The position numbers were made by a program, and so were the translations under genes. The notes beneath the pieces were generated by a model, which worked only from the letters and a program-made list of their open reading frames with translations, searched no databases and had not been told where the DNA came from. From positions 1-64,000 of the forward strand of contig JACPCX010000176.1 in assembly GCA_016184305.1 (NCBI GenBank): a DNA stretch of 64,000 nt, in the 5' to 3' direction. This stretch comes from Candidatus Rokuibacteriota bacterium (lineage in GTDB: Bacteria; Methylomirabilota; Methylomirabilia; Rokubacteriales; CSP1-6). Shown one piece after another: positions 32,657 to 57,950 of this stretch. The stretch's first letter is position 1. The number at the start of each line of letters is the position of its first letter.

Positions 32657-32777
32657 CCCGATGAGCGCTTGCGCGAAGAGGCCCGACCGCCAGACCGACG
32701 TGAGCGACGTTCAAGCGACCAAGAAGTCAGTCACATTCAAGCGACCAAGACGTGAGTCACATTCACGCGACCAAGAC
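32657..32777 (+). repeat. Family B element head plus three tandem 26-bp units
   Basis: CCCGATGAGCGC..GCGCGAAGAGGCC shared with 38055; units GTGAGTCACATTCAAGCGACCAAGAC at 32700, 32726, 32752. Confidence 0.85.
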
Positions 32778-38047: not shown

Positions 38048-38193
38048 ACGCCGCCCCGATGAGCGCCGCAGGCGCGAAGAGGCCGAACCGCAACCCGGGA
38101 TCCTCCACATTCAAGCGACCCGAACAGAGCGCCGCAGGCGCGAAGAGGCCGAACCGCAACCCGAAATCATCCACATTCAGGCGACCTGAATGA
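38044..38193 (+). repeat. Family B tandem repeat (2 x ~65 bp) reading as a 49-aa ORF
   Basis: GAGCGCCGCAGGCGCGAAGAGGCCGAACCGCAACCCG at 38061 and 38127; ATGA overlaps at both ends. Confidence 0.85.
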
Positions 38194-41956: not shown

Positions 41957-42108
41957 GGGCGAGCTGAGCCGCGCCCCGCGGCGAGGCGAGCGGACATGGG
42001 AATCCCCCGAGCGGAGCGAGGCGGGCGAGCTGAGCCGCGCCCCGCGGCGAGGCGAGCGGATATGGGAATCCCCCGAGCGGAGCGAGGCGGGCGAGCGTGA
42101 GCGAGCCA
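41957..42108. repeat. Tandem 66-bp repeat (~2.3 copies) related to the module inside family A
   Basis: GGGCGAGC units at 41957, 42023, 42089; reverse complement contains TGGCTCGCTCACGCTCGCCCG as at 5702. Confidence 0.9.
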
Positions 42109-46530: not shown

Positions 46531-48180
46531 ATGCCGGCGAGATCGGGCAGGACCAAGCGGAAGTCCAAGACGCCCAAGCCGAATGGCGGTGGCCACGCGG
46601 ACCTGATCCGCCAGCTCTGGGAAGCCGCCGTCCATCTCCGCGGCTCCATCGAGCCCGCCGACTACAAGCGGTATGTCCTGCCCATCATCTTCCTGCGCTT
46701 CCTCTCCCTCCGGTACGAGCGCCGCCGCCACGAGCTGGAGCGGATGACCCGGGAGCCGCGCTCCGGGTACTACACGAAGAATGCAAAGCAGGCCGCCGCC
46801 ATCCTGGAAGACCCGGACGAGTACCGGTCGGTGGGCGCCTTCATCGTGCCCAAGGCGGCCCGCTGGGAGGAAATCGTCAAGCACGCCCAGGCCGACGACA
46901 TCAAGGTGCGGCTGGACCACGCCCTCGAGGCGCTCGAGAAGGCCTACCCTGACAAGCTCCGGGGCCTCCTGCCGCGGACCTACGCCGGCTCCAACCTGGA
47001 GCGCGAGGGCGTCACCGGGCTCATCAACCTCTTCGCCAAGGACGTGTTCAAGGAAGACCATGGCGGCGAGGACCTCATCGGCAGGGTTTACGAGTACTTC
47101 ATCGGCGAGTTCGCCTCCTCCGAGGGCAAGCGGGGCGGCGAGTACTTCACCCCGGTGAGCATCGTCCGCACCCTGGTGGCCATGCTGGCGCCCGAGGAGG
47201 GCATCGTCCTCGATCCCTGCTGCGGCTCGGGCGGCATGTTCGTCCAGTCTGACCTCTTCACCCGGCACAGCCATCGCCTCTCCTTCGTGGGCCAGGAGTC
47301 CAAGGACTTCACCTACCGGCTCTGCCGGATGAACCTCTTCATCCACGGGCTGGACGGCAATATCCAGCTTGGCAACTCCTTCATCGACGACAGGCACGCG
47401 ACGGTCAAGGCCGACTACGTGCTGGCCAATCCGCCCTTCAACGACGGCTCCAAGAGCGAGAACGGCTGGGGCGCCGACCGCCTCCCCGACACGGACCTCC
47501 GCCTCGTCGTGAGTGGGCAGCGGATGCCGCTCTCCCCACGCAACGCCAACACCATGTGGATCCTCCACTTCCTCCATCACCTCAGGGAAGGCGGCACGGC
47601 GGGCTTCGTGATGGCGACGGGGGAGCTGAGCAACGGCGAGACCGCCCGCCTCGAGGTGCGCAAGGCCCTGGTGGAGCAGGGACACGTGGACTGCATCGTC
47701 CAGCTCACCGGCCAGCTCTTCGCCAACACCCAGATCCCCTGCGCGCTCTGGTTCCTGGCGAAGAATCGGGACGGTCAGGGTGGCTTCCGCCCCCGCCAGG
47801 GCGAGATCCTTTTCATCGACGGCCGCAGGCTCGGCTCGCTCATCCCCGGCTCCCGCAAGCAGAAACAGCTCGCGGACGAGGAGATCCGGCGCATCGCCTC
47901 CGTCTACCGCGCCTACTGCGCCGAGGCCCGCCCTCCGGACGTCCCCGGCTTCTGCCGGGTGGCCCCCCTCGACGAGGTGCGCGGCCACACCTACGCCCTC
48001 GCCCCCGGCCGCTACGTGGGCGCCGAAGACGGCTCCGACGACGACGAGCCCCTCGAGGACAAGCTCCCGCGGCTGGTCAAGCAGCTCGAGGAGCAGTTCG
48101 CGCGGTCGGCGGAGCTGGAGCGTGCCATCCGGCGAAACCTCCAGGCCCTCATCTGCGACGGAGTGGAGCGCCAGGCTTGA
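46531..48180 (+). CDS. hsdM: Type I R-M N6-adenine methyltransferase
   Basis: GEYFTP, DPCCGSGGMF, GQE, ANPPFN, PGRYVG. Confidence 0.95.
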   Translation: MPARSGRTKRKSKTPKPNGGGHADLIRQLWEAAVHLRGSIEPADYKRYVLPIIFLRFLSLRYERRRHELERMTREPRSGYYTKNAKQAAAILEDPDEYRSVGAFIVPKAARWEEIVKHAQADDIKVRLDHALEALEKAYPDKLRGLLPRTYAGSNLEREGVTGLINLFAKDVFKEDHGGEDLIGRVYEYFIGEFASSEGKRGGEYFTPVSIVRTLVAMLAPEEGIVLDPCCGSGGMFVQSDLFTRHSHRLSFVGQESKDFTYRLCRMNLFIHGLDGNIQLGNSFIDDRHATVKADYVLANPPFNDGSKSENGWGADRLPDTDLRLVVSGQRMPLSPRNANTMWILHFLHHLREGGTAGFVMATGELSNGETARLEVRKALVEQGHVDCIVQLTGQLFANTQIPCALWFLAKNRDGQGGFRPRQGEILFIDGRRLGSLIPGSRKQKQLADEEIRRIASVYRAYCAEARPPDVPGFCRVAPLDEVRGHTYALAPGRYVGAEDGSDDDEPLEDKLPRLVKQLEEQFARSAELERAIRRNLQALICDGVERQA

Positions 48181-48238
48181 GATCACGATCCCGTGACCTC
48201 AGAGCGAACTTCGAGGTCGCACACACTGCGGCGGGACG

Positions 48239-49603
48239 GTGATGGACGTGAGCCCATCCCCGCAGTTCTGGCAGGCGACAGCCGTGGAGGCTGAGTGGCC
48301 CACCTTCCCGGTCGAGGAGCTGCAGCGTCGAGGGTGGCTGTTCGTGGAGGATGGCAATCACGGGGAGTCCCGACCCCTGCCCCACGAGTTCGGCTCGGGC
48401 TCCACCGCGTTCATCCGAGCCGCCGACATTGACTACGGTCGCGTCCTCTTCGAGACGGCGGAGTGCATCAACGACACCGCCCTGGCCAGGATCCGCAAGG
48501 GGGTGGGGCGCGGCGGCGACGTCCTCTTCTCTCACAAGGGAACCGTCGGCAAGCTGGCGTTGGTCCCGCTCGATGCCCCCCCGTTCGTCTGTTCCCCGCA
48601 GACGACGTTCTGGCGGACTCTCGACCCGACTCGACTGGACCGTCAGTTCCTCTTCTCGTTCATGCGCTCGAAACCCTTCGCGGACCAGTGGTTCTCTCGC
48701 AAGGGCGAGACCGACATGGCCGACTACGTGAGCCTCACCGCCCAGCGAGGGTGTTCCGTCCCGGTCCCTCCGATCGAGCAGCAGCACGCCATCGGCCGCG
48801 TCCTCGGTGCGCTCGACGACAAGATCGAGCTGAATCGCCAGATGAACCGGACGTTGGAGGCGATGGCCCAGGCGATCTTCAGGTCCTGGTTCGTGGACTG
48901 TGATCCGGTCGCCGCCAAGACCGCCGGCCGCCAGCCCTTCGGCATGGACAGCGAGATTGCGGGCCTCTTCCCTGATCGCGTCCGTGACTCCCACATGGGC
49001 CCGCTCCCGGACGGTTGGATCCCAACGACCATCGCCGGGATCGCCGGCTACGTGAATGGCCGTAACTTCACGGCTGGCGCAACGGGGCGAGGACGGATGG
49101 TCATACGGATCGCCGAGTTGAACTCGGGTCCGGGTCCGTCAACGGTCTACACGGAAGCGGATGCACCACCCGCCCACATCGCCCAACCGGGTGACCTGCT
49201 CTTCGCATGGTCCGGGTCCCTGGGGATCTATCGTTGGTGGCGTGACGATGCATTGATTAACCAACACGTCTTCAAGGTGGTGTGCGAACGATTGCCTCAA
49301 TGGTTCGTCCATTGGCACTTGAGGGAGGCGCTTCCGTTCTTCCAGAGCATTGCAGCCGAGAAGGCAACAACCATGGGGCACATCAAGCGGGAACACCTGG
49401 CCCAGTGGGATCTCGCCATCCCATCACGCGGCATGCTTCAGGCCGCCGACCGCATCCTGGGTCCCCGATACAACCGCATCTTCGAGAACGAAAGAGAGTC
49501 TCTGGTGCTGGCTGATCTCGGGGTGTTGCTCCTGGCTGGACTGCTCTCCGGTGAGATCCGGGTCCGGGAGGCGGAGAAGCTGGTGGTTCAGGCGGGTGCC
49601 TGA
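48239..49603 (+). CDS. hsdS: Type I R-M specificity subunit
   Basis: PPIEQQHAI..LDDKIELNRQMNRTLEAMAQAIFRSWF; two TRDs; LLSGEIRV. Confidence 0.92.
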   Translation: MMDVSPSPQFWQATAVEAEWPTFPVEELQRRGWLFVEDGNHGESRPLPHEFGSGSTAFIRAADIDYGRVLFETAECINDTALARIRKGVGRGGDVLFSHKGTVGKLALVPLDAPPFVCSPQTTFWRTLDPTRLDRQFLFSFMRSKPFADQWFSRKGETDMADYVSLTAQRGCSVPVPPIEQQHAIGRVLGALDDKIELNRQMNRTLEAMAQAIFRSWFVDCDPVAAKTAGRQPFGMDSEIAGLFPDRVRDSHMGPLPDGWIPTTIAGIAGYVNGRNFTAGATGRGRMVIRIAELNSGPGPSTVYTEADAPPAHIAQPGDLLFAWSGSLGIYRWWRDDALINQHVFKVVCERLPQWFVHWHLREALPFFQSIAAEKATTMGHIKREHLAQWDLAIPSRGMLQAADRILGPRYNRIFENERESLVLADLGVLLLAGLLSGEIRVREAEKLVVQAGA

Positions 49604-50262: not shown

Positions 50263-51594
50263 ATGCCACAACGCGCAGGCCGCAGTCCCGAAGAAGACGC
50301 GCTCCTCGAGAAGGCCGCCCGGCTCCTGCCCGGCGGGGTGCTGGGCGGCTACTCCGTCCCGCGTGAACTGTCGTTCATCGTGCGGGAGGGGCGGGGCCCG
50401 CGCCTCTACGACGTCTCCGGACGGGAGTACGTCGACTACATCCTGGGCTCGGGCCCCCTCGTGCTCGGCCACGCGCATCCCGCCGTCATGGCCGCGGTGG
50501 AGCGGCAGCTCAGCCGGGGCACGACCTACTTCCAGCTCAGCGAGCCCACGCTCGAGCTCGCCGAGGAGATCTGCCGCGCCGTGCCCTGCGCCGAGCAGGT
50601 CCGCTTCACCTCCTCGGGCAGCGAGGCCACGTTCTTCGCCCTCCGCATCGCCCGCGCCTTCATGAAGAAGGACAAGATCCTGAAGTTCGAGGGCGGCTTC
50701 CACGGCACTCACGACTACTCGCTGATGAGCGTCGGCCCACGGTCGCCCAAGGCCTTCCCCGCCCCGACGCCCGACTCGGCCGGCATTCCCCACGCCATCC
50801 AGGACAACGTCCTCGTCGCCCCGTTCAACGATCTCGCCGAGACGGAGGCGATCCTCGCCGCCCACCACCAGGATCTGGCCGCGGTGATCATGGAGCCCTT
50901 CCAGCGGCTCATCGCGCCGCAGCGGGAGTTCCTCCGCGGCGTGCGCGAGATCACGCGCCGTCACGGCATCCCCCTCATCTTCGACGAGATCGTCACGGGC
51001 TTCCGTTTCGCCTACGGCGGGGCTCAGGAGTACTACGGCGTGGTCCCCGATCTGGTCGCTCTCGGCAAGATCGTCGGCGGCGGCTTCGCCCTGGCCGCCG
51101 TCGCCGGCCGCCGGGACATCATGCGCCACCTGGCGCCGGACCTCGACGGAACGCCCGAGTTCGTCGCCCAGGCCGGCACGCTGAACGGCAATCCCGTGGC
51201 GGCGGCGGCGGGGCTCGCCACGCTCACGGAGCTGCGGAAGCCCGGGACCTACGCGCGGCTCTTCGCCACGGGGGCCCGGGTCAAGGCCGCGCTGGAAGAG
51301 GCCGCCCGCGCGGTGGGGGTCCCCGCCCAGGTGGCCGGCGAGGCGCCGGTGTTCGAGATCTACTTCACCGACCGGCCCATCACCGACTATCGGGCGACGC
51401 TCACGGCCGACCGGCAGCGCCACGCGGTCTTCACCCGCGCGCTGCTCGAGTGGGGTATCGTCAAGGCGAGCCAGAAGTTTTACGTCTCCCTCGCCCACGG
51501 CGAGGAGGATGTCCGGCAGACCACGGCAGCATTCGCCGCGGCGCTGCACGCCGTGGCCGAACAACGACCCGCCAACAGGAGGACGCCCTCATGA
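50263..51594 (+). CDS. Class III PLP aminotransferase (HemL-like)
   Basis: SGSEA, FEGGFHG, FDEIVTGFR, LGKIVGGG, GTLNGNP. Confidence 0.9.
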   Translation: MPQRAGRSPEEDALLEKAARLLPGGVLGGYSVPRELSFIVREGRGPRLYDVSGREYVDYILGSGPLVLGHAHPAVMAAVERQLSRGTTYFQLSEPTLELAEEICRAVPCAEQVRFTSSGSEATFFALRIARAFMKKDKILKFEGGFHGTHDYSLMSVGPRSPKAFPAPTPDSAGIPHAIQDNVLVAPFNDLAETEAILAAHHQDLAAVIMEPFQRLIAPQREFLRGVREITRRHGIPLIFDEIVTGFRFAYGGAQEYYGVVPDLVALGKIVGGGFALAAVAGRRDIMRHLAPDLDGTPEFVAQAGTLNGNPVAAAAGLATLTELRKPGTYARLFATGARVKAALEEAARAVGVPAQVAGEAPVFEIYFTDRPITDYRATLTADRQRHAVFTRALLEWGIVKASQKFYVSLAHGEEDVRQTTAAFAAALHAVAEQRPANRRTPS

Positions 51595-52901
51595 GCGAGC
51601 GCTGGATGGATGAACCTTGGGCCGAGTCCGAGGAGGTCTGGTATAGCGGCAAGGTCACGCGGCGAACGTTGCTCGGCCTCGGCGCCACCGCGGCGGGCGC
51701 CCTCGGCGCGACCATGCTCGTGCCGGCGCCCTGGCGGCACGCCTTCGGCCAGGCCAAGGCCTACAGGGTCGGGACGCTCCAGCCGCTCTCGGGAGCAGCG
51801 GCGGCCGGGGGCAAGACGGCGCTGGTCGGGGTGGAGATGGCGGTGGACCGCGCCAACAAGTCTGGCGGGATCGGCGGCCGACCTGTCGAGCTGATCGTCG
51901 CCGACTACGAGTCCAAGCCCGACGTCGGCCGGCGCAAGGCCGAGAAGCTCGCCCTCGAGGACAAGATCGACGCCCACGTGGGCGGCTACCTGTCCAACGT
52001 GTGCCTGGCCTGCATGCCGGTGTGGGAGGAGCACAAGATCGTCAACATGATCACGGTGTGCCTCGACACGACCATCACGACCACCAAGTGCAGCCGCTAC
52101 ACCTTCCGGCCCTTCGACTACGCCCCCGCCCAGGCGGTGGCCTTCGCGCCGTACCTGGTGGGGAAGATGGGCAAGAAGTGGCACATCGTCTACGCCGACT
52201 ACGCCTGGGGGCAGTCCACCCGTGACGCCTTCGCCGCGGAGATCAAGAAGAACGGCGGCGAGATGGTCGGCAGCACGGGCATCCCCCTCGGCACGGCCGA
52301 CATGACGCCCTTCCTGTCGAAGATCAGCGGCGGCTTCGACGGGCTCTTCGGCATCTTCTTCGGCGGCCAGGGCATCTCGTTCGTGACCCAGACCTTCGAC
52401 CTCGGCATGTCGAAGAAGTACAAGATCGCCGGCGACGGGGCCATGACGCCCTCGGTGAGCCTCCCTGCCATCGGCACCAAGGGCGACGGCTTCACCGGCA
52501 TCGACCGGTACATTCCGGTGCTGGAGGGGCCGCTCAACACGCCCTCCCACAAGAAGTTCTTCGACGACGCGGTGGCGCGACTCAAGGCCATCGACCCGTC
52601 GGGCCCGCTGCCGGACCGCTTCGTGCAGTCCAACTTCGAGGTCTTCAACTTCCTCAAGCTCGGGATCCAGAAGTCGGGCTTCCGCGGACGCGAGGACACG
52701 ATGAAGCTCATCGCGGCCCTCGAGGGCATGGAGGTCAAGGAGAGCGACGACTTCCCGCAGGGCGACAAGACGCTGCGCAAGGAGGACCACCAGGCCTTCC
52801 TGCGCGAGTTCATCTACGGCCTGAAGAACGTCAAGCACCGGCTGCTGGAGATCGTGCCGAAGGACAAGACCCTCGTCCCGCCGGCCTGCAAGTTCGCGTA
52901 G
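51591..52901 (+). CDS. Liv-type ABC substrate-binding protein with Tat-like signal
   Basis: TRRTLL; PLSG, GGIGGRPVEL, DYAWG; AGGAGG SD; ATGA overlap. Confidence 0.88.
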   Translation: MSERWMDEPWAESEEVWYSGKVTRRTLLGLGATAAGALGATMLVPAPWRHAFGQAKAYRVGTLQPLSGAAAAGGKTALVGVEMAVDRANKSGGIGGRPVELIVADYESKPDVGRRKAEKLALEDKIDAHVGGYLSNVCLACMPVWEEHKIVNMITVCLDTTITTTKCSRYTFRPFDYAPAQAVAFAPYLVGKMGKKWHIVYADYAWGQSTRDAFAAEIKKNGGEMVGSTGIPLGTADMTPFLSKISGGFDGLFGIFFGGQGISFVTQTFDLGMSKKYKIAGDGAMTPSVSLPAIGTKGDGFTGIDRYIPVLEGPLNTPSHKKFFDDAVARLKAIDPSGPLPDRFVQSNFEVFNFLKLGIQKSGFRGREDTMKLIAALEGMEVKESDDFPQGDKTLRKEDHQAFLREFIYGLKNVKHRLLEIVPKDKTLVPPACKFA

Positions 52902-52902
52902 C

Positions 52903-53697
52903 GTGACGGTGGACCAATCCCGATGGGGCTCGCCGGCGGAGCACGGCCGGAGCGCCTCCTCGGGTCCCATTCTGCGCACCGAGGGGCTCACGATGCGGTT
53001 TGGCGGCCTCGCGGCCGTCAACAACGTGAGCCTCTCGGTCCCGCGAGGCGAGATCCGCGCCATCATCGGTCCCAACGGCGCGGGCAAGAGCACCTTCTTC
53101 AACTGCCTGACCGGCGTCCTCCGGCCCACCGGCGGGCGCGTCCTCCTCGACGGCGAGGATGTGACCGGGCTGCCGCCGAACCGGATTTCCCGCAAGGGCA
53201 TCGCCCGCTCGTACCAGCTCACCAACATCATGCCCGGCGCCACCGTGCTCGAGAACGTCCGCATCGCCGCCCAGTCGCGGCAGCATGGCTGGAGCCTGCT
53301 GAGCCACCACCGCGCCTTCGGCGACCTGATCGCCCGGGCGCAGAGCGTGCTGGAGGCGGTGGCGCTCCGCGAGAAGGCGGGCGAGCTGGCGGCCAACCTC
53401 TCGCACGGCGAGCAGCGCAACCTGGAGATCGGCATCGCGCTGGCCACCGAGCCCCGGCTCCTGTGCCTCGACGAGCCGACGGCCGGCATGAGCGTCACCG
53501 AGACCCACGCGACGGTGGAGCTCATCCGCCACATCGCGCGTGACCTGACCATCCTCATCGTGGAGCACGACATGGAGGTGGTGATGGGGCTGGCCCAGAC
53601 CATCACCGTGCTCCACTACGGCGAGGTGCTCGCCGAGGGAACGCCCGCCGAGATCCAGGACAACCCGCGGGTGCAGGAGGTCTACCTCAAGACCTGA
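52903..53697 (+). CDS. Liv-type ABC ATPase (LivG-like)
   Basis: FGGLAAV, GPNGAGKST, LDEPTAG, VEHDM. Confidence 0.92.
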   Translation: MTVDQSRWGSPAEHGRSASSGPILRTEGLTMRFGGLAAVNNVSLSVPRGEIRAIIGPNGAGKSTFFNCLTGVLRPTGGRVLLDGEDVTGLPPNRISRKGIARSYQLTNIMPGATVLENVRIAAQSRQHGWSLLSHHRAFGDLIARAQSVLEAVALREKAGELAANLSHGEQRNLEIGIALATEPRLLCLDEPTAGMSVTETHATVELIRHIARDLTILIVEHDMEVVMGLAQTITVLHYGEVLAEGTPAEIQDNPRVQEVYLKT

Positions 53698-54404
53698 TGC
53701 TGACCCTCACGGAGGTTCACACCTACTACGGCAAGAGCCACATCCTGCTCGGCGTCTCCCTCGAGGTGCAGCCGGGCGAGGTGGTCGGTCTCCTCGGTCG
53801 GAACGGCGTCGGCAAGAGCACCACGCTCAAGACCATCATGGGGCTCGTGCGGCCGTCGGGGGGACACGTGCGCTTCGACGGGCGCGAGATCGCCGGCACG
53901 GCGCCCCACCGCCTCGCTCACGCGGGGCTCGCCTGGGTCCCGGAGGACCGCCGCATCTTCCGCCTCCTCTCGGTCATGGAGAACCTGCGAACGGGGCTCG
54001 ACCGGCCGGGAATGACCGAGGCCAGGCGGCGCGAGCTGCTCGACAAGGTGTACGCCCACTTCCCGGTGCTGGCGGAGCGGCGGAGCCAGGCGGGGGGCAC
54101 GCTGTCCGGCGGTGAGCAGCAGATGCTGGCCATCGCCCGCGCCATGATGCTCGAGCCCAAGATCATCCTCCTCGACGAGCCGACGGAGGGGCTCATGCCG
54201 CGCATGGTCGGCCAGATCCGCGAGATCATCAGGCTGCTCCACCAGGACAGCGTGGCGATCCTGCTGGTCGAGCAGAACGTCCCGCTCACCCTGGACGTCA
54301 GCGATCGCGTCTACATCATGGAGAAGGGTCTGGTCCGCCACCACGCCACGGCCGCCGAGCTGCGGGCCGACCACGCCGTGATCCACCAGTACCTGGGGGT
54401 GTAG
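53697..54404 (+). CDS. Liv-type ABC ATPase (LivF-like)
   Basis: GRNGVGKST, LSGGEQQMLAIAR, VEQN. Confidence 0.92.
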   Translation: MLTLTEVHTYYGKSHILLGVSLEVQPGEVVGLLGRNGVGKSTTLKTIMGLVRPSGGHVRFDGREIAGTAPHRLAHAGLAWVPEDRRIFRLLSVMENLRTGLDRPGMTEARRRELLDKVYAHFPVLAERRSQAGGTLSGGEQQMLAIARAMMLEPKIILLDEPTEGLMPRMVGQIREIIRLLHQDSVAILLVEQNVPLTLDVSDRVYIMEKGLVRHHATAAELRADHAVIHQYLGV

Positions 54405-54406
54405 GC

Positions 54407-55279
54407 GTGAGCATTCCCCTCGACCAGATCCTCATCCAGACGGTCAACGGGCTCGTCAACGGGATGATCCTCGCGCTCGTCGCCTCAGGGCTGACGCTCA
54501 TCTTCGGGATCATGGACGTGGTCAACTTCGCCCACGGAGACCTCGTGATGCTCGGCGGATTCACGGGCGCGGTGACCATCGCGGCCACGGGAAATTTCTG
54601 GCTCGCCCTCCTCGTCGCCGTGCTCATCATCGCGGTGTTCGGCGCCGTGCTCCAGGCGACGACGCTGCGCCCGCTGCTGGGCCGCGATCCCCTCACCACC
54701 ATCCTCGCCACCTTCGGCATCTCGCTCGTGCTCCAGAAGTACGCGCTCTGGCAGTGGGGACCGTCGGCGCGCAGGATCCAGGAGCCCCTCACCGGCCAGT
54801 TCCAGCTCTTCTACCTGCAGTACCCGTGGTACCGGGTGCTCACCGCCGTCCTCTCGGCGGCGATCATCGGCGGCTTCTGGCTCTTCCTCAGGCATGGCAA
54901 GTACGGCATCTGGATCCGCGCCACCATGCAGGACCGCATCATGGCCTCGGCCATGGGCATCCCGGTGCCGTGGGTCCACACCGGCGTCTTCGCCATCGGC
55001 GCCGGCATGGCCGCCGCCAGCGGGGTGCTCTTCGGCCCGCTCGGCGGAGTCACGCAGAACATGGGGCTGGACTTCACGCTGCGGGCCTTCATCGTGGTGG
55101 TGGTGGGCGGGATGGGCAATCTCGGCGGCTCCATCTTCGCCGCGATCTTCATCAGCCTGCTCGAGGCCTACGCCTCCCTGGTCGTGAGCCCGGCCCAGGC
55201 GGTGATCGTCTCCTTCGTGGCCCTGATCCTCACGCTCCTGTTCCGGCCCACGGGCCTCTTCGTCCCGACGCCGAAGTGA
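54407..55279 (+). CDS. Liv-type ABC permease (LivH-like)
   Basis: GLTLIFG..VVNFAHG, VVVGGMG, FRPTGL. Confidence 0.92.
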   Translation: MSIPLDQILIQTVNGLVNGMILALVASGLTLIFGIMDVVNFAHGDLVMLGGFTGAVTIAATGNFWLALLVAVLIIAVFGAVLQATTLRPLLGRDPLTTILATFGISLVLQKYALWQWGPSARRIQEPLTGQFQLFYLQYPWYRVLTAVLSAAIIGGFWLFLRHGKYGIWIRATMQDRIMASAMGIPVPWVHTGVFAIGAGMAAASGVLFGPLGGVTQNMGLDFTLRAFIVVVVGGMGNLGGSIFAAIFISLLEAYASLVVSPAQAVIVSFVALILTLLFRPTGLFVPTPK

Positions 55280-55346
55280 GGACCCCGAAGTGAGGCCCCC
55301 GAAGTGAGGACCCCGAAGTGAGGACCCCGAAGTGAAGACCCAATGA
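55271..55346 (+). repeat. Tandem 14-bp repeat (CCGAAGTGAGGACC, ~5 copies)
   Basis: GTGA at 55276, 55290, 55304, 55318, 55332. Confidence 0.95.
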
Positions 55347-56299
55347 TCGCCCGCCGTTCGCCCGCCGCCTACTGGACCGGCTTCGCCGTCGTGCTGGCCC
55401 TGCTGGCCATCGCCCCTCTCGTGTTGCCTGAGTTCTGGCGACGCTTCGTCACCGAGATCCTGATCTGGGGCCTGCTGGCCATGTCCTCGGACATCCTGAT
55501 CGGCTACACGGGCATGATCTCCTTCGGCCACTCGGTCTTCTTCGGGCTGGGCATATACGGGGCGGCCGCCGCCCTCCTTTCCGTCACGCCACCCAACCTG
55601 TGGCTGGCGCTCCTCTACGGGCTGACGGCTGCCGGTACGGCCGCCGTCTTCGTGGCCTACTTCTCCACGCGGCTGCGCGACATCTACTTCGCCATCACGA
55701 CGCTCGTCTTCTCCCAGATCTTCTACGTCATCATCTTCACGTGGACCGCGGTCACGGGCGGCGAGAATGGGCTGACCTTCGCCCAGCCGTCGCTCTCTCT
55801 CCCCGGCCTCGGGGCGGCGCGCTTCACCCCGGAGACCCTTCACTGGTTCGTGCTCGGGGTCGTGACCCTCTCGTACCTGCTCCTCAGGCGCATCACCCAG
55901 TCGCCGTTCGGGATGGTGCTGCAGTCCATCCGCGAGAACGAGCCGCGGACCCGGGCCATCGGCTACGCCGTGGAGCGCTACAAGATCGTGGCGGTCATGC
56001 TCTCGGGGCTCTTCGCGGGCCTGGCTGGCGTCCTCTATGCGGTCCAGAACAAGTTCGCGGCGCCCGACTTCGTCTTCTTCCTCGTCTCGGGCGAGGTCGT
56101 GATCTTCAACGTCATGGGCGGCATGGGCACGCTGGTGGGGCCGGTGGCGGGCGCGGCCTTCTTCCTGCTGCTGCGCGAGGGCATCTCCCGCTACTGGACC
56201 GAGTACTACCTCATCCCCGTGGGCATCATTTTCACCGCGATGGTGATCTTCATGCCCCAGGGCCTCCTCGGCTTCGCCAGGCGCCGGCTGAACGAGTAG
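55343..56299 (+). CDS. Liv-type ABC permease (LivM-like)
   Basis: GYTGMISFGH, TGGENG, SPFG..IRENE, PQGLLG. Confidence 0.92.
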   Translation: MIARRSPAAYWTGFAVVLALLAIAPLVLPEFWRRFVTEILIWGLLAMSSDILIGYTGMISFGHSVFFGLGIYGAAAALLSVTPPNLWLALLYGLTAAGTAAVFVAYFSTRLRDIYFAITTLVFSQIFYVIIFTWTAVTGGENGLTFAQPSLSLPGLGAARFTPETLHWFVLGVVTLSYLLLRRITQSPFGMVLQSIRENEPRTRAIGYAVERYKIVAVMLSGLFAGLAGVLYAVQNKFAAPDFVFFLVSGEVVIFNVMGGMGTLVGPVAGAAFFLLLREGISRYWTEYYLIPVGIIFTAMVIFMPQGLLGFARRRLNE

Positions 56300-56321
56300 C
56301 GCCGGGCCGACTCGCTTTGCC

Positions 56322-56343
56322 CTGGCTCGCTCACCCTCGCCCG
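56322..56343. repeat. Free-standing fragment of the GGCTCGCTCAC(G/C)CTCGCCCG module
   Basis: Matches 5702-5722 and the reverse complements of ~18996-19016 and ~42088-42108. Confidence 0.7.
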
Positions 56344-56432
56344 AGTCCGGATATTCACGAGCAGGCCTCACCCCGAGGGTGTATCACTTCCGAGGCGTTG
56401 ACCCCTCCCGGTGCGCGCCCGACACTGACCCC

Positions 56433-57950
56433 GTGCTCGCGCGCGTAACCTCCGCGTCACTTCAGGGGATCCAGGCCGTCGTCGTCTCGGTGGAGGTCGA
56501 CGTCGCCTCGGGTCTGCCGTCCTTCACGACGGTGGGGCTGCCGGATTCCACCGTGCGCGAGAGCCGCGACCGCATCCGCGCGGCCATCCACAATGCGGGC
56601 TTCAGCTTCCCCGTGGACCGCATCACGGTGAGCCTGGCGCCCGCCGATCTGCGCAAGGAGGGCCCGGCCTTCGACCTGCCGATGGCGGTGGCCATCCTCG
56701 CCGCCACGGGAGTCGTGAAGCCGGACCTGCTCGAGCGCGCCGCGCTCCTCGGGGAGCTGTCCCTCGACGGGCGCGTCCGTCCCGTGCGCGGCGTCCTGCC
56801 CGTGGCGCTCCTCTGCCGCCAGGAAAGGATCCCGCTCTTGATGGTGCCCGCCGAGAACGCGCGGGAGGCCGCAGTGGTCGCGGGACTCCACGTCATCCCG
56901 GTGCACTCCATCCACGACACGGTGGAGTATCTCAACGGGGAACGGCCACTCGAGCGGGTGGAGGCGACCGCAGCGGGGGGCATCGAGCCCGCGCCCGAGA
57001 CGATCGACTTCGCCGAGGTGCGCGGTCAGGCCCACGCCAAGCGCGCGCTCGAGATCGCCGCTGCGGGCGGCCACAACGTCCTGATGATCGGCCCGCCCGG
57101 GGCTGGCAAGACCATGCTCGCCCAGCGCCTCGCCACCATCCTCCCGCCGCTGTCGCTGGACGAGGCCATCGAGGTGTCGGTGGTCTGGAGCGTGGCGGGG
57201 CTCCTGTCGGCCGAGCGCGGACTCGTGGACAGCCGCCCGTTCCGGGCGCCGCACCACACGGTGTCCGGGTCGGGGCTCATCGGCGGCGGCGGCGCTCCCC
57301 ATCCGGGCGAGGCGAGCCTGGCGCACCTGGGCGTGCTTTTCCTGGACGAGCTGCCCGAGTTCTCCCGGCGCGTGCTCGAGTCCCTGCGCCAGCCCCTGGA
57401 GGACGGGGTGGTCACGGTCACCCGCGCGGCGGGGAGCGCGTCCTTCCCCGCGCGCTTCCAGCTCGTGGGCGCGGCGAACCCGTGCCGGCGCGGCTGCCGC
57501 TCGGTGGAGACCTGCGCGTGCACGCCCGCCGAGCGCGAGCAGTACCTGGGGCGTCTCTCGGGGCCGCTCCTGGACCGCATCGACCTCCATGTCGAGCTGC
57601 CGGCGGTGACCTACGCCGAGCTCGACGCCGACGCCGCCGGCGAGCCGTCGGCGGCCATCCGGCGACGCGTGGTCGCCGCGCGGGACCGCCAGGCCGCGCG
57701 CTTCGCGGGCACCGACGTGCGCGTCAACGCGCGCATGAGCGGGCGACAGACGCGCCTCTTCTGCCGTGTGCCGGCGGAGGCAGGCCGCTTGCTCGGGCGC
57801 GCCGTCTCCCGGCTCGGCCTCTCGGCGCGCGCCTATCACCGCGTCCTCAAGGTCGCGCGGACGGTTGCGGACCTTGCAAGATGTGAGACGATAGCCGCGG
57901 AGCACGTGTCCGAGGCCCTGCAGTATCGGGCGTTCGACCGCTGCCTCTGA
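56433..57950 (+). CDS. comM: ComM/YifB Mg-chelatase-like AAA+ ATPase
   Basis: VGLPD, GPPGAGKT, FRAPHH, LDELPEF, SGPLLDRID. Confidence 0.93.
   Translation: MLARVTSASLQGIQAVVVSVEVDVASGLPSFTTVGLPDSTVRESRDRIRAAIHNAGFSFPVDRITVSLAPADLRKEGPAFDLPMAVAILAATGVVKPDLLERAALLGELSLDGRVRPVRGVLPVALLCRQERIPLLMVPAENAREAAVVAGLHVIPVHSIHDTVEYLNGERPLERVEATAAGGIEPAPETIDFAEVRGQAHAKRALEIAAAGGHNVLMIGPPGAGKTMLAQRLATILPPLSLDEAIEVSVVWSVAGLLSAERGLVDSRPFRAPHHTVSGSGLIGGGGAPHPGEASLAHLGVLFLDELPEFSRRVLESLRQPLEDGVVTVTRAAGSASFPARFQLVGAANPCRRGCRSVETCACTPAEREQYLGRLSGPLLDRIDLHVELPAVTYAELDADAAGEPSAAIRRRVVAARDRQAARFAGTDVRVNARMSGRQTRLFCRVPAEAGRLLGRAVSRLGLSARAYHRVLKVARTVADLARCETIAAEHVSEALQYRAFDRCL

Follow-up and report, generated by a model that had tools for sequence, protein, structure and literature searches.

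A slippage-variable array of stop-start-coupled mini-ORFs between livH and livM in Candidatus Rokubacteria, probably translated as a ribosome relay

In one operon of a Candidatus Rokubacteria genome, two permease genes are linked by a chain of five mini-ORFs. This raises the question of how the chain arose, why it stays in phase and whether ribosomes pass along it from one gene to the next. The operon was found in the window, which is the whole stretch of 64,000 nucleotides that was analyzed. The features of the operon are listed below.

51591..54404, plus strand: upstream operon genes, a periplasmic binding protein and two ABC ATPases
54407..55279, plus strand: livH-type permease of 290 aa (PF02653, E 1.3e-40)
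55276..55293, plus strand: mini-ORF 1, MRTPK, which sits at the ancestral livM start
55290..55307, plus strand: mini-ORF 2, MRPPK, a unit variant with one substitution
55304..55321, plus strand: mini-ORF 3, MRTPK
55318..55335, plus strand: mini-ORF 4, MRTPK
55332..55346, plus strand: mini-ORF 5, MKTQ, an 11-nt terminal unit present in all chain alleles of the clade
55343..56299, plus strand: livM-type permease of 318 aa, the final gene of the transporter operon (PF02653, E 8.7e-42)

The livH-type and livM-type products are branched-chain amino acid permease subunits, both matching PF02653. The gene names livH and livM were assigned from gene order and are taken here as an assumption. Neighboring genes in the upstream part of the operon overlap or sit 1-2 nt apart. 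The livH stop is the TGA at 55277-55279, inside GTGA at 55276-55279. Mini-ORFs 1 to 4 have five codons each (starts GTG 55276, 55290, 55304 and 55318) and mini-ORF 5 (GTG 55332) has four. Each GTG start overlaps the preceding stop, and the stop of mini-ORF 5 overlaps the livM ATGA at 55343, giving six RTGA overlaps at -4 nt from livH through the array to livM. ATG 55343 is the sole in-frame livM start downstream of an in-frame stop within the array. Tandem Repeats Finder placed the repeat at 55267-55341 with a period of 14, 5.4 copies, 93% matches and a score of 129.

The five-ORF stop-start chain at 55276-55346 was thus exactly as the original prediction had claimed, with the stop now placed more precisely. 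The chain exceeds chance expectation, which was assessed by shuffling the 63-nt spacer 100,000 times. Any chain appeared in 5.8% of the shuffles and none exceeded two steps. When all RTGA sites were scanned, the array was the only chain in the genome with at least four steps of 10 codons or fewer. A consensus scan of the operon region (51300-56500) found no sigma-70-like promoter and no intrinsic terminator. The array RNA formed no stable hairpin and folded worse than shuffles (z +1.37). A 628-aa minus-strand ORF across the array was not chosen by the hexamer gene model and was treated as an antisense shadow. Six RNA runs contained only 7-13% of the words sampled. Elsewhere in the window, two ORFs at 46531-49603 resemble, as we judge from their translations, the M and S subunits of a type I restriction-modification system. 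No R subunit was seen downstream of them.

Named records that were 95-98% alike at the livH end were Candidatus Rokubacteria MAGs. The junction was compared in 24 loci, drawn from four genomes, 16 metagenome contigs and four named MAG contigs, some of them probably duplicate data. The chain of the clade was present in 12 of the 24 with two, three, four or five mini-ORFs, and all 12 were in phase and reached livM. The remaining loci were eight direct overlaps, two other bridges, one case in genome G049 (described below) and the window's own locus. Among strains 97-100% identical at the livH end the number of mini-ORFs ranged from one to five. Contigs from four sequencing runs were also aligned to the junction. 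In one run two joints skip 42 and 56 nt, which are whole units, leaving two mini-ORFs and one, respectively. Two alleles of the junction coexist within one sample. Another run contained a diverged relative in which the first unit has other letters, is apparently still 14 nt long and has an 11-nt unit after it. In one sister genome a unit of 15 nt is read through (10 + 4 codons), and another has 0-mod-3 copies only, which form an N-terminal extension of LivM. Every observed copy number leaves livH, the chain and livM intact. One option in the original prediction was a VNTR at the junction that is tolerated only as long as coupling persists, and copy number in related MAGs was named there as a check. 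The check came out in favor of that reading, as copy number in related MAGs and contigs is polymorphic, shifts by whole units and keeps the phase in all alleles of the clade.

An assembly stutter is an unlikely origin of the array, and next to no weight is given to it. No Logan contig piece spans the entire array, which fits a stutter. Against this, the array is 75 nt long and heterogeneous. A separately assembled metagenome contig (L090), possibly from the same source material, has an identical five-unit junction, and other metagenome contigs carry two, three and four mini-ORFs.

The source of the unit was found at the end of livH itself. Array 14-mers ending in GTGA are identical to the final 14 nt of livH at 11-12 of 14 positions. 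Unit words of 11-14 nt match only inside the array in the 3.2-Mb genome (89% complete). This makes the unit a local copy of the livH end, duplicated at a junction that was ancestrally coupled by a 4-nt RTGA overlap. With a Lys codon followed by TGA at the end of livH, the copied unit joins a stop with a GTG start. A mobile source for the 14-nt unit was rejected, as the genome has no second locus. A 65-nt element found at this junction in relatives was likewise rejected as the source, with 0 nhmmer hits in the window's genome.

The livH-livM junction was then compared across the order. A livH-end pattern matched 117 of 183 genomes (Candidatus Rokubacteria); 116 were classified and G049 was treated apart. 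The two genes overlapped directly in 80 of the 116, in 79 by 4 nt and in one by TAATG. In 13 the livH stop was TAA or TAG and the distance to the first livM start was 0-24 nt; by eye one of these (L114) has a four-codon bridge opened by TAATG. Mini-ORF bridges were present in 18, comprising 13 one-step bridges, three two-step bridges, one three-step bridge and the five-step bridge of the window. In L177, one of the two-step bridges, an N gap keeps the bridge from being traced as far as livM. The chain was broken in one genome (L141). Four junctions (L009, L013, L129 and L166) lose the frame and offer livM no alternative start, and these frame breaks were judged to be assembly indels. At least five kinds of bridge were seen, namely the 14-nt duplication, two-codon steps, three-codon steps, a 15-codon step and a 65-nt element present once or twice. 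None of the 18 bridged junctions had a clean 1-mod-3 spacer to livM. A rough junction tree was built from 114 rows and 291 columns, with 56 of its 111 inner branches open. Five bridged rows had a supported unbridged sister and three more formed groups of their own, so that about eight or more separate origins of bridges are indicated.

The element of about 65 nt was observed at the junction in nine relatives (L014, L105, L107, L135, L141, L175, L176, L177 and L183). It forms a 22-codon bridge, occurs as in-phase pairs (e.g., 66 + 65 nt) or lies in frame with livM. In G049 an exported-looking 446-aa gene lies between livH and livM (L025, G049:C154, 953-2412, minus strand), which may resemble vanadium haloperoxidase/PAP2 proteins. 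A 10-nt step, which is out of phase, leads from livH to this gene, and the stop of the gene in turn opens a 41-codon ORF ending on the livM start. L095 was considered as an out-of-phase allele with a 10-nt step and was rejected because an inserted gene rather than livM comes next. The livH-livM junction looks like an insertion hotspot.

A step of 2 mod 3 makes a mini-ORF end on the next start, and a step of 0 mod 3 reads through. The phase of such steps was examined in the whole genome using our own hexamer gene caller, which gave 3,206 genes and 2,254 co-oriented pairs. An RTGA stop was present in 891 of these pairs. It was directly coupled in 546 and unlinked in 236, and bridges had one step in 91, two in 12, three in four, four in one and five in one. 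Where an RTGA start lay 5-40 nt away, the step from an RTGA stop was in the bridging phase in 42 cases and out of phase in nine, compared to 65 and 39 for other stops (odds ratio 2.8, Fisher p 0.016), a control that is itself biased toward the bridging phase. For this test 20 RTGA pairs and four control pairs with a possible overlap start were dropped and TTGA was set aside. Spacers of 41-100 nt showed no phase excess (19 vs. 14; control 24 vs. 19). A second copy of the junction within 150 nt was found for 15 of 1,032 RTGA-stop genes, nine at 2 mod 3, two at 1 mod 3 and four at 0.

All 183 genomes of the order were also scanned for four RTGA at a fixed period, with overlapping rows merged. Fifty-seven arrays had a period of 2 mod 3 and 19 a period of 1 mod 3. 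The counts at periods 11, 14 and 17 were 11, 32 and 14, respectively, and those at periods 10, 13 and 16 were 4, 3 and 12, respectively; the raw counts at periods 17 and 16 are thus 14 vs. 12. Anchoring on a gene, where the first stop ends or the last start opens a coding ORF, was judged for 52 of the 57 arrays and for all 19. It was seen in 29/52 vs. 4/19 (p 0.015), and arrays joining coding ORFs on both sides numbered 10/52 vs. 0/19 (p 0.053), although all p values, including that of the single-genome test, overstate the difference because the genomes are kin. Only two of the 11 period-11 arrays touch a gene. The order-wide phase signal rests mostly on period 14, and some of the arrays are homologous. 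Statistically, junction spacers and gene-end RTGA arrays survive mainly at steps of 2 mod 3 or 0 mod 3. The enrichment of 2-mod-3 periods at junctions for which the original prediction had proposed a scan was therefore found, in the 5-40 nt steps of one genome and in the arrays of the order, and was absent at 41-100 nt. It also agrees with a VNTR that is tolerated only with coupling.

Several other arrays were observed in the order-wide scan. One group (L033, L043, L196, L208-L210, L215, L220 and L222) is G-rich, has periods of 14-17 and begins where a palindromic repeat ends. These arrays come mostly from one genus, form no gene-junction chains and make up half of the period-16 matches. Period-14 and period-17 arrays ending on a gene start (L032, L034, L040, L041, L054, L197 and L199) consist of SD plus start units repeated before a gene, with no coding gene directly coupled upstream. 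At G060:C55:449383-449567 the stop/start word itself is repeated as a long, pure 4-nt microsatellite, possibly a long-read artefact.

These phase data bear on whether the array is a neutral duplication scar, with unused mini-ORFs and a phase that is an accident of one founding duplication copied by slippage. Since a single event gave rise to all units of the clade, the five steps cannot be counted as five independent coincidences. By arithmetic, a random duplication over an RTGA overlap keeps coupling in two of three length classes, and 13 relatives do without RTGA coupling. A scar is nevertheless considered quite improbable. The separate origins at the livH-livM junction are all in phase, the diverged unit lost its letters and kept its length, and the order-wide bias is independent of the livH-livM locus.

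Our preferred reading is that the array is a VNTR which slippage produced at a junction coupled since ancestral times, that it persists only in the phase which allows coupling, and that it is probably translated as a relay. Of the mechanisms that the sequence suggests, a translational relay is the likeliest, and we consider it fairly probable that ribosomes are passed along this variable tandem repeat of local origin. In the clade the livH end, comprising the stop and the old livM start, was duplicated, and livM acquired a new start, the ATGA that lies 11 nt past the final copy. Slippage now adds or removes whole 14-nt units. A ribosome terminating on livH would re-initiate on the overlapping GTG, make a peptide of 4-5 residues and repeat this unit by unit until it lands on livM. 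The SD-like pairing of each unit may help the next start. The mini-ORF peptides would have no function of their own and copy number would be close to neutral. In E. coli a 38-nt gap lowered re-initiation by 80-100%, as reported in PMC10666635, which also cites studies with long-range coupling. On the E. coli figure an unbridged gap of 63 nt would probably uncouple livM.

The SD pairing of the starts was calculated with the standard anti-SD letters, which were checked in the 16S gene tail of a genome of the same order (G046), the 16S gene being unassembled in the window's genome. Pairing before the first GTG was nil (0.1 kcal/mol), and mini-ORF 1 should therefore be reached mainly by ribosomes finishing livH. 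At each of the next four mini-ORF starts the unit before it offers SD-like pairing of -7.2 kcal/mol; for livM the value is a weak -5.2 kcal/mol. Across the genome the downstream starts of bridged junctions pair more strongly than directly coupled starts (median -7.0, n = 73, vs. -6.1, n = 394). A GAGG SD-like motif had been predicted in every full unit. It was found in the units preceding the last. The last unit has none here or in one sister genome, so the livM start is without the motif, and in the diverged relative both units are without it. GAGG is thus not a conserved part of the array.

Some observations count against the relay. De novo initiation may be enough for livM, given its own weak SD and the 13 of 116 relatives that do without an RTGA overlap. 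The chain in L141 is broken, and the frame is lost at four junctions. Five serial steps would also cost output unless each is nearly loss-free. The rival explanation is that the mini-ORFs are translated with no hand-over of a single ribosome, and that livM starts de novo at the nearest SD-like site. Phase would then be kept for one of two reasons: an out-of-phase orphan start would carry ribosomes across the livM start in the wrong frame, or ribosomes translating the spacer would hold the RNA open and protected. We hold this unlikely, though a serious contender. It predicts the same phase bias, and the SD pairing given by units 1-4, that of livM and the stronger pairing at bridged starts are all in line with it. 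The review PMC12548453 leaves both RNA unfolding and re-initiation possible. A two-codon minigene is described as raising txe translation in cis, possibly via mRNA stability (PMC8708949). Against de novo initiation, the first GTG has no SD and was the livM start in most relatives, and coupling must therefore have fed the junction before the array existed. If livM relied on de novo initiation alone, a weakening of its SD should also be resisted, and such a weakening is seen in the window and in one sister genome. Both the relay and this rival require translation of the units.

The original prediction had also suggested a copy-number rheostat for permease stoichiometry, which was not supported. 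Under this explanation copy number is a selected, evolvable dial for LivM output or the LivH:LivM ratio, in the style of a contingency locus. Copy number is indeed polymorphic, even in one sample, and output would have to scale with it if steps lose or gain ribosomes. A selected dial is still very improbable. There is no preferred number, with one to five copies among strains 97-100% alike at the livH end, 80 of the 116 genomes have no mini-ORFs, and similar arrays occur at unrelated genes. Partner permease subunits work 1:1, and LivH and LivM are partner subunits of one permease.

A broader proposal follows from the relay and is put forward tentatively, as we think it rather doubtful. Serial re-initiation via ORFs of 2-5 codons may be nearly loss-free in Rokubacteria. 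Coupled junctions may be safe harbors for slippage copies, mobile repeats and whole genes as long as an in-phase mini-ORF spans them, and short arrays at junctions may tune the downstream gene in a graded and heritable way. If this is true, the livH-livM series with 0-5 steps would be a natural ruler for the efficiency of one re-initiation step. Apart from this proposal, the repeated, separate in-phase insertions at one junction in 116 genomes are comparative evidence for translation of unannotated ORFs of 2-44 codons that lie between the genes of an operon. With its natural range of 0-5 steps the junction lends itself to a simple measurement of the yield of termination-reinitiation per step, and could separate hand-over of the same ribosome from de novo starts. 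This per-step yield is still to be quantified according to PMC6728339.

In a literature collection with few subscription journals, no paper turned up that deals with Rokubacteria or with chains of several steps arising from duplication of a local junction. The array was compared with known systems of variable repeats and short coupled ORFs. In phase-variable contingency repeats a change in copy number switches a reading frame or promoter on and off. The array is unlike these, as its copy changes keep livH, the chain and livM intact and the region has no promoter-like site. It is like termination-reinitiation at ATGA/GTGA overlaps (PMC6728339, PMC10666635) in having a -4 RTGA overlap at each step and flanking genes that encode subunits of one complex. 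In such coupling an SD before the downstream start is usual but not obligatory; in the array, SD-like pairing precedes most starts and is absent before the first GTG. Strict coupling is reported for 13 of 14 gene pairs, with a variable role of the SD (PMC6728339). The pairs described in these two sources are single overlaps, whereas the array has five serial overlaps via peptides of 4-5 residues. Upstream ORFs, the bicistronic design (PMC12548453) and the axe-txe minigene (PMC8708949) share with the array a short ORF with no useful product that promotes the next gene in cis, and a dependence on frame and distance. As described, those are single ORFs in a leader or within a gene, whereas the array is a variable chain fed by an upstream stop.

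The closest parallels considered were the mycobacterial MIRUs. These are described as repeats of 40-100 bp at 41 loci with small ORFs and variable copy number (PMC5056196), the ORF of which couples at -4 so that insertion does little harm (PMC12548453). MIRUs already exemplify this principle and ABC transporters are commonplace loci, so that the array is in itself a modest discovery. Dispersed repeats of a comparable kind were also observed in the window's genome. A repeat of about 62-69 nt gave 60 nhmmer hits, usually beginning at ATGA, in the window (38059-38193 and 32661-32720), on other contigs (C215:70316-70505, C3:3695-3763, C71, C85, C173 and C239) and elsewhere. Several copies are in-phase bridges, including three tandem 62-nt units on C215, and periods of 63 and 43 nt occur too. 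The MIRU-like mobile family of this genome is this repeat and not the 14-nt unit. A 66-nt unit at 41957-42102 of the window (2.2 copies), with similar letters bridging junctions on C18, C126 and C5, is probably a further dispersed family. Like MIRU-VNTR, the array is an intergenic direct tandem repeat in an operon, oriented with transcription, with a small ORF per unit coupled at -4 and a copy number that is polymorphic between strains (1-5 here). The proposed logic is also the same, in that the insert is tolerated since coupling is kept. Unlike MIRUs (PMC5056196), which are dispersed and apparently mobile, at 41 loci with units of 40-100 bp, the array has a 14-bp unit that is a local copy of a gene end at one locus. 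Its ORFs have only 4-5 codons and its host is Candidatus Rokubacteria, a distinction drawn from the hosts and the published descriptions rather than from sequence comparison.
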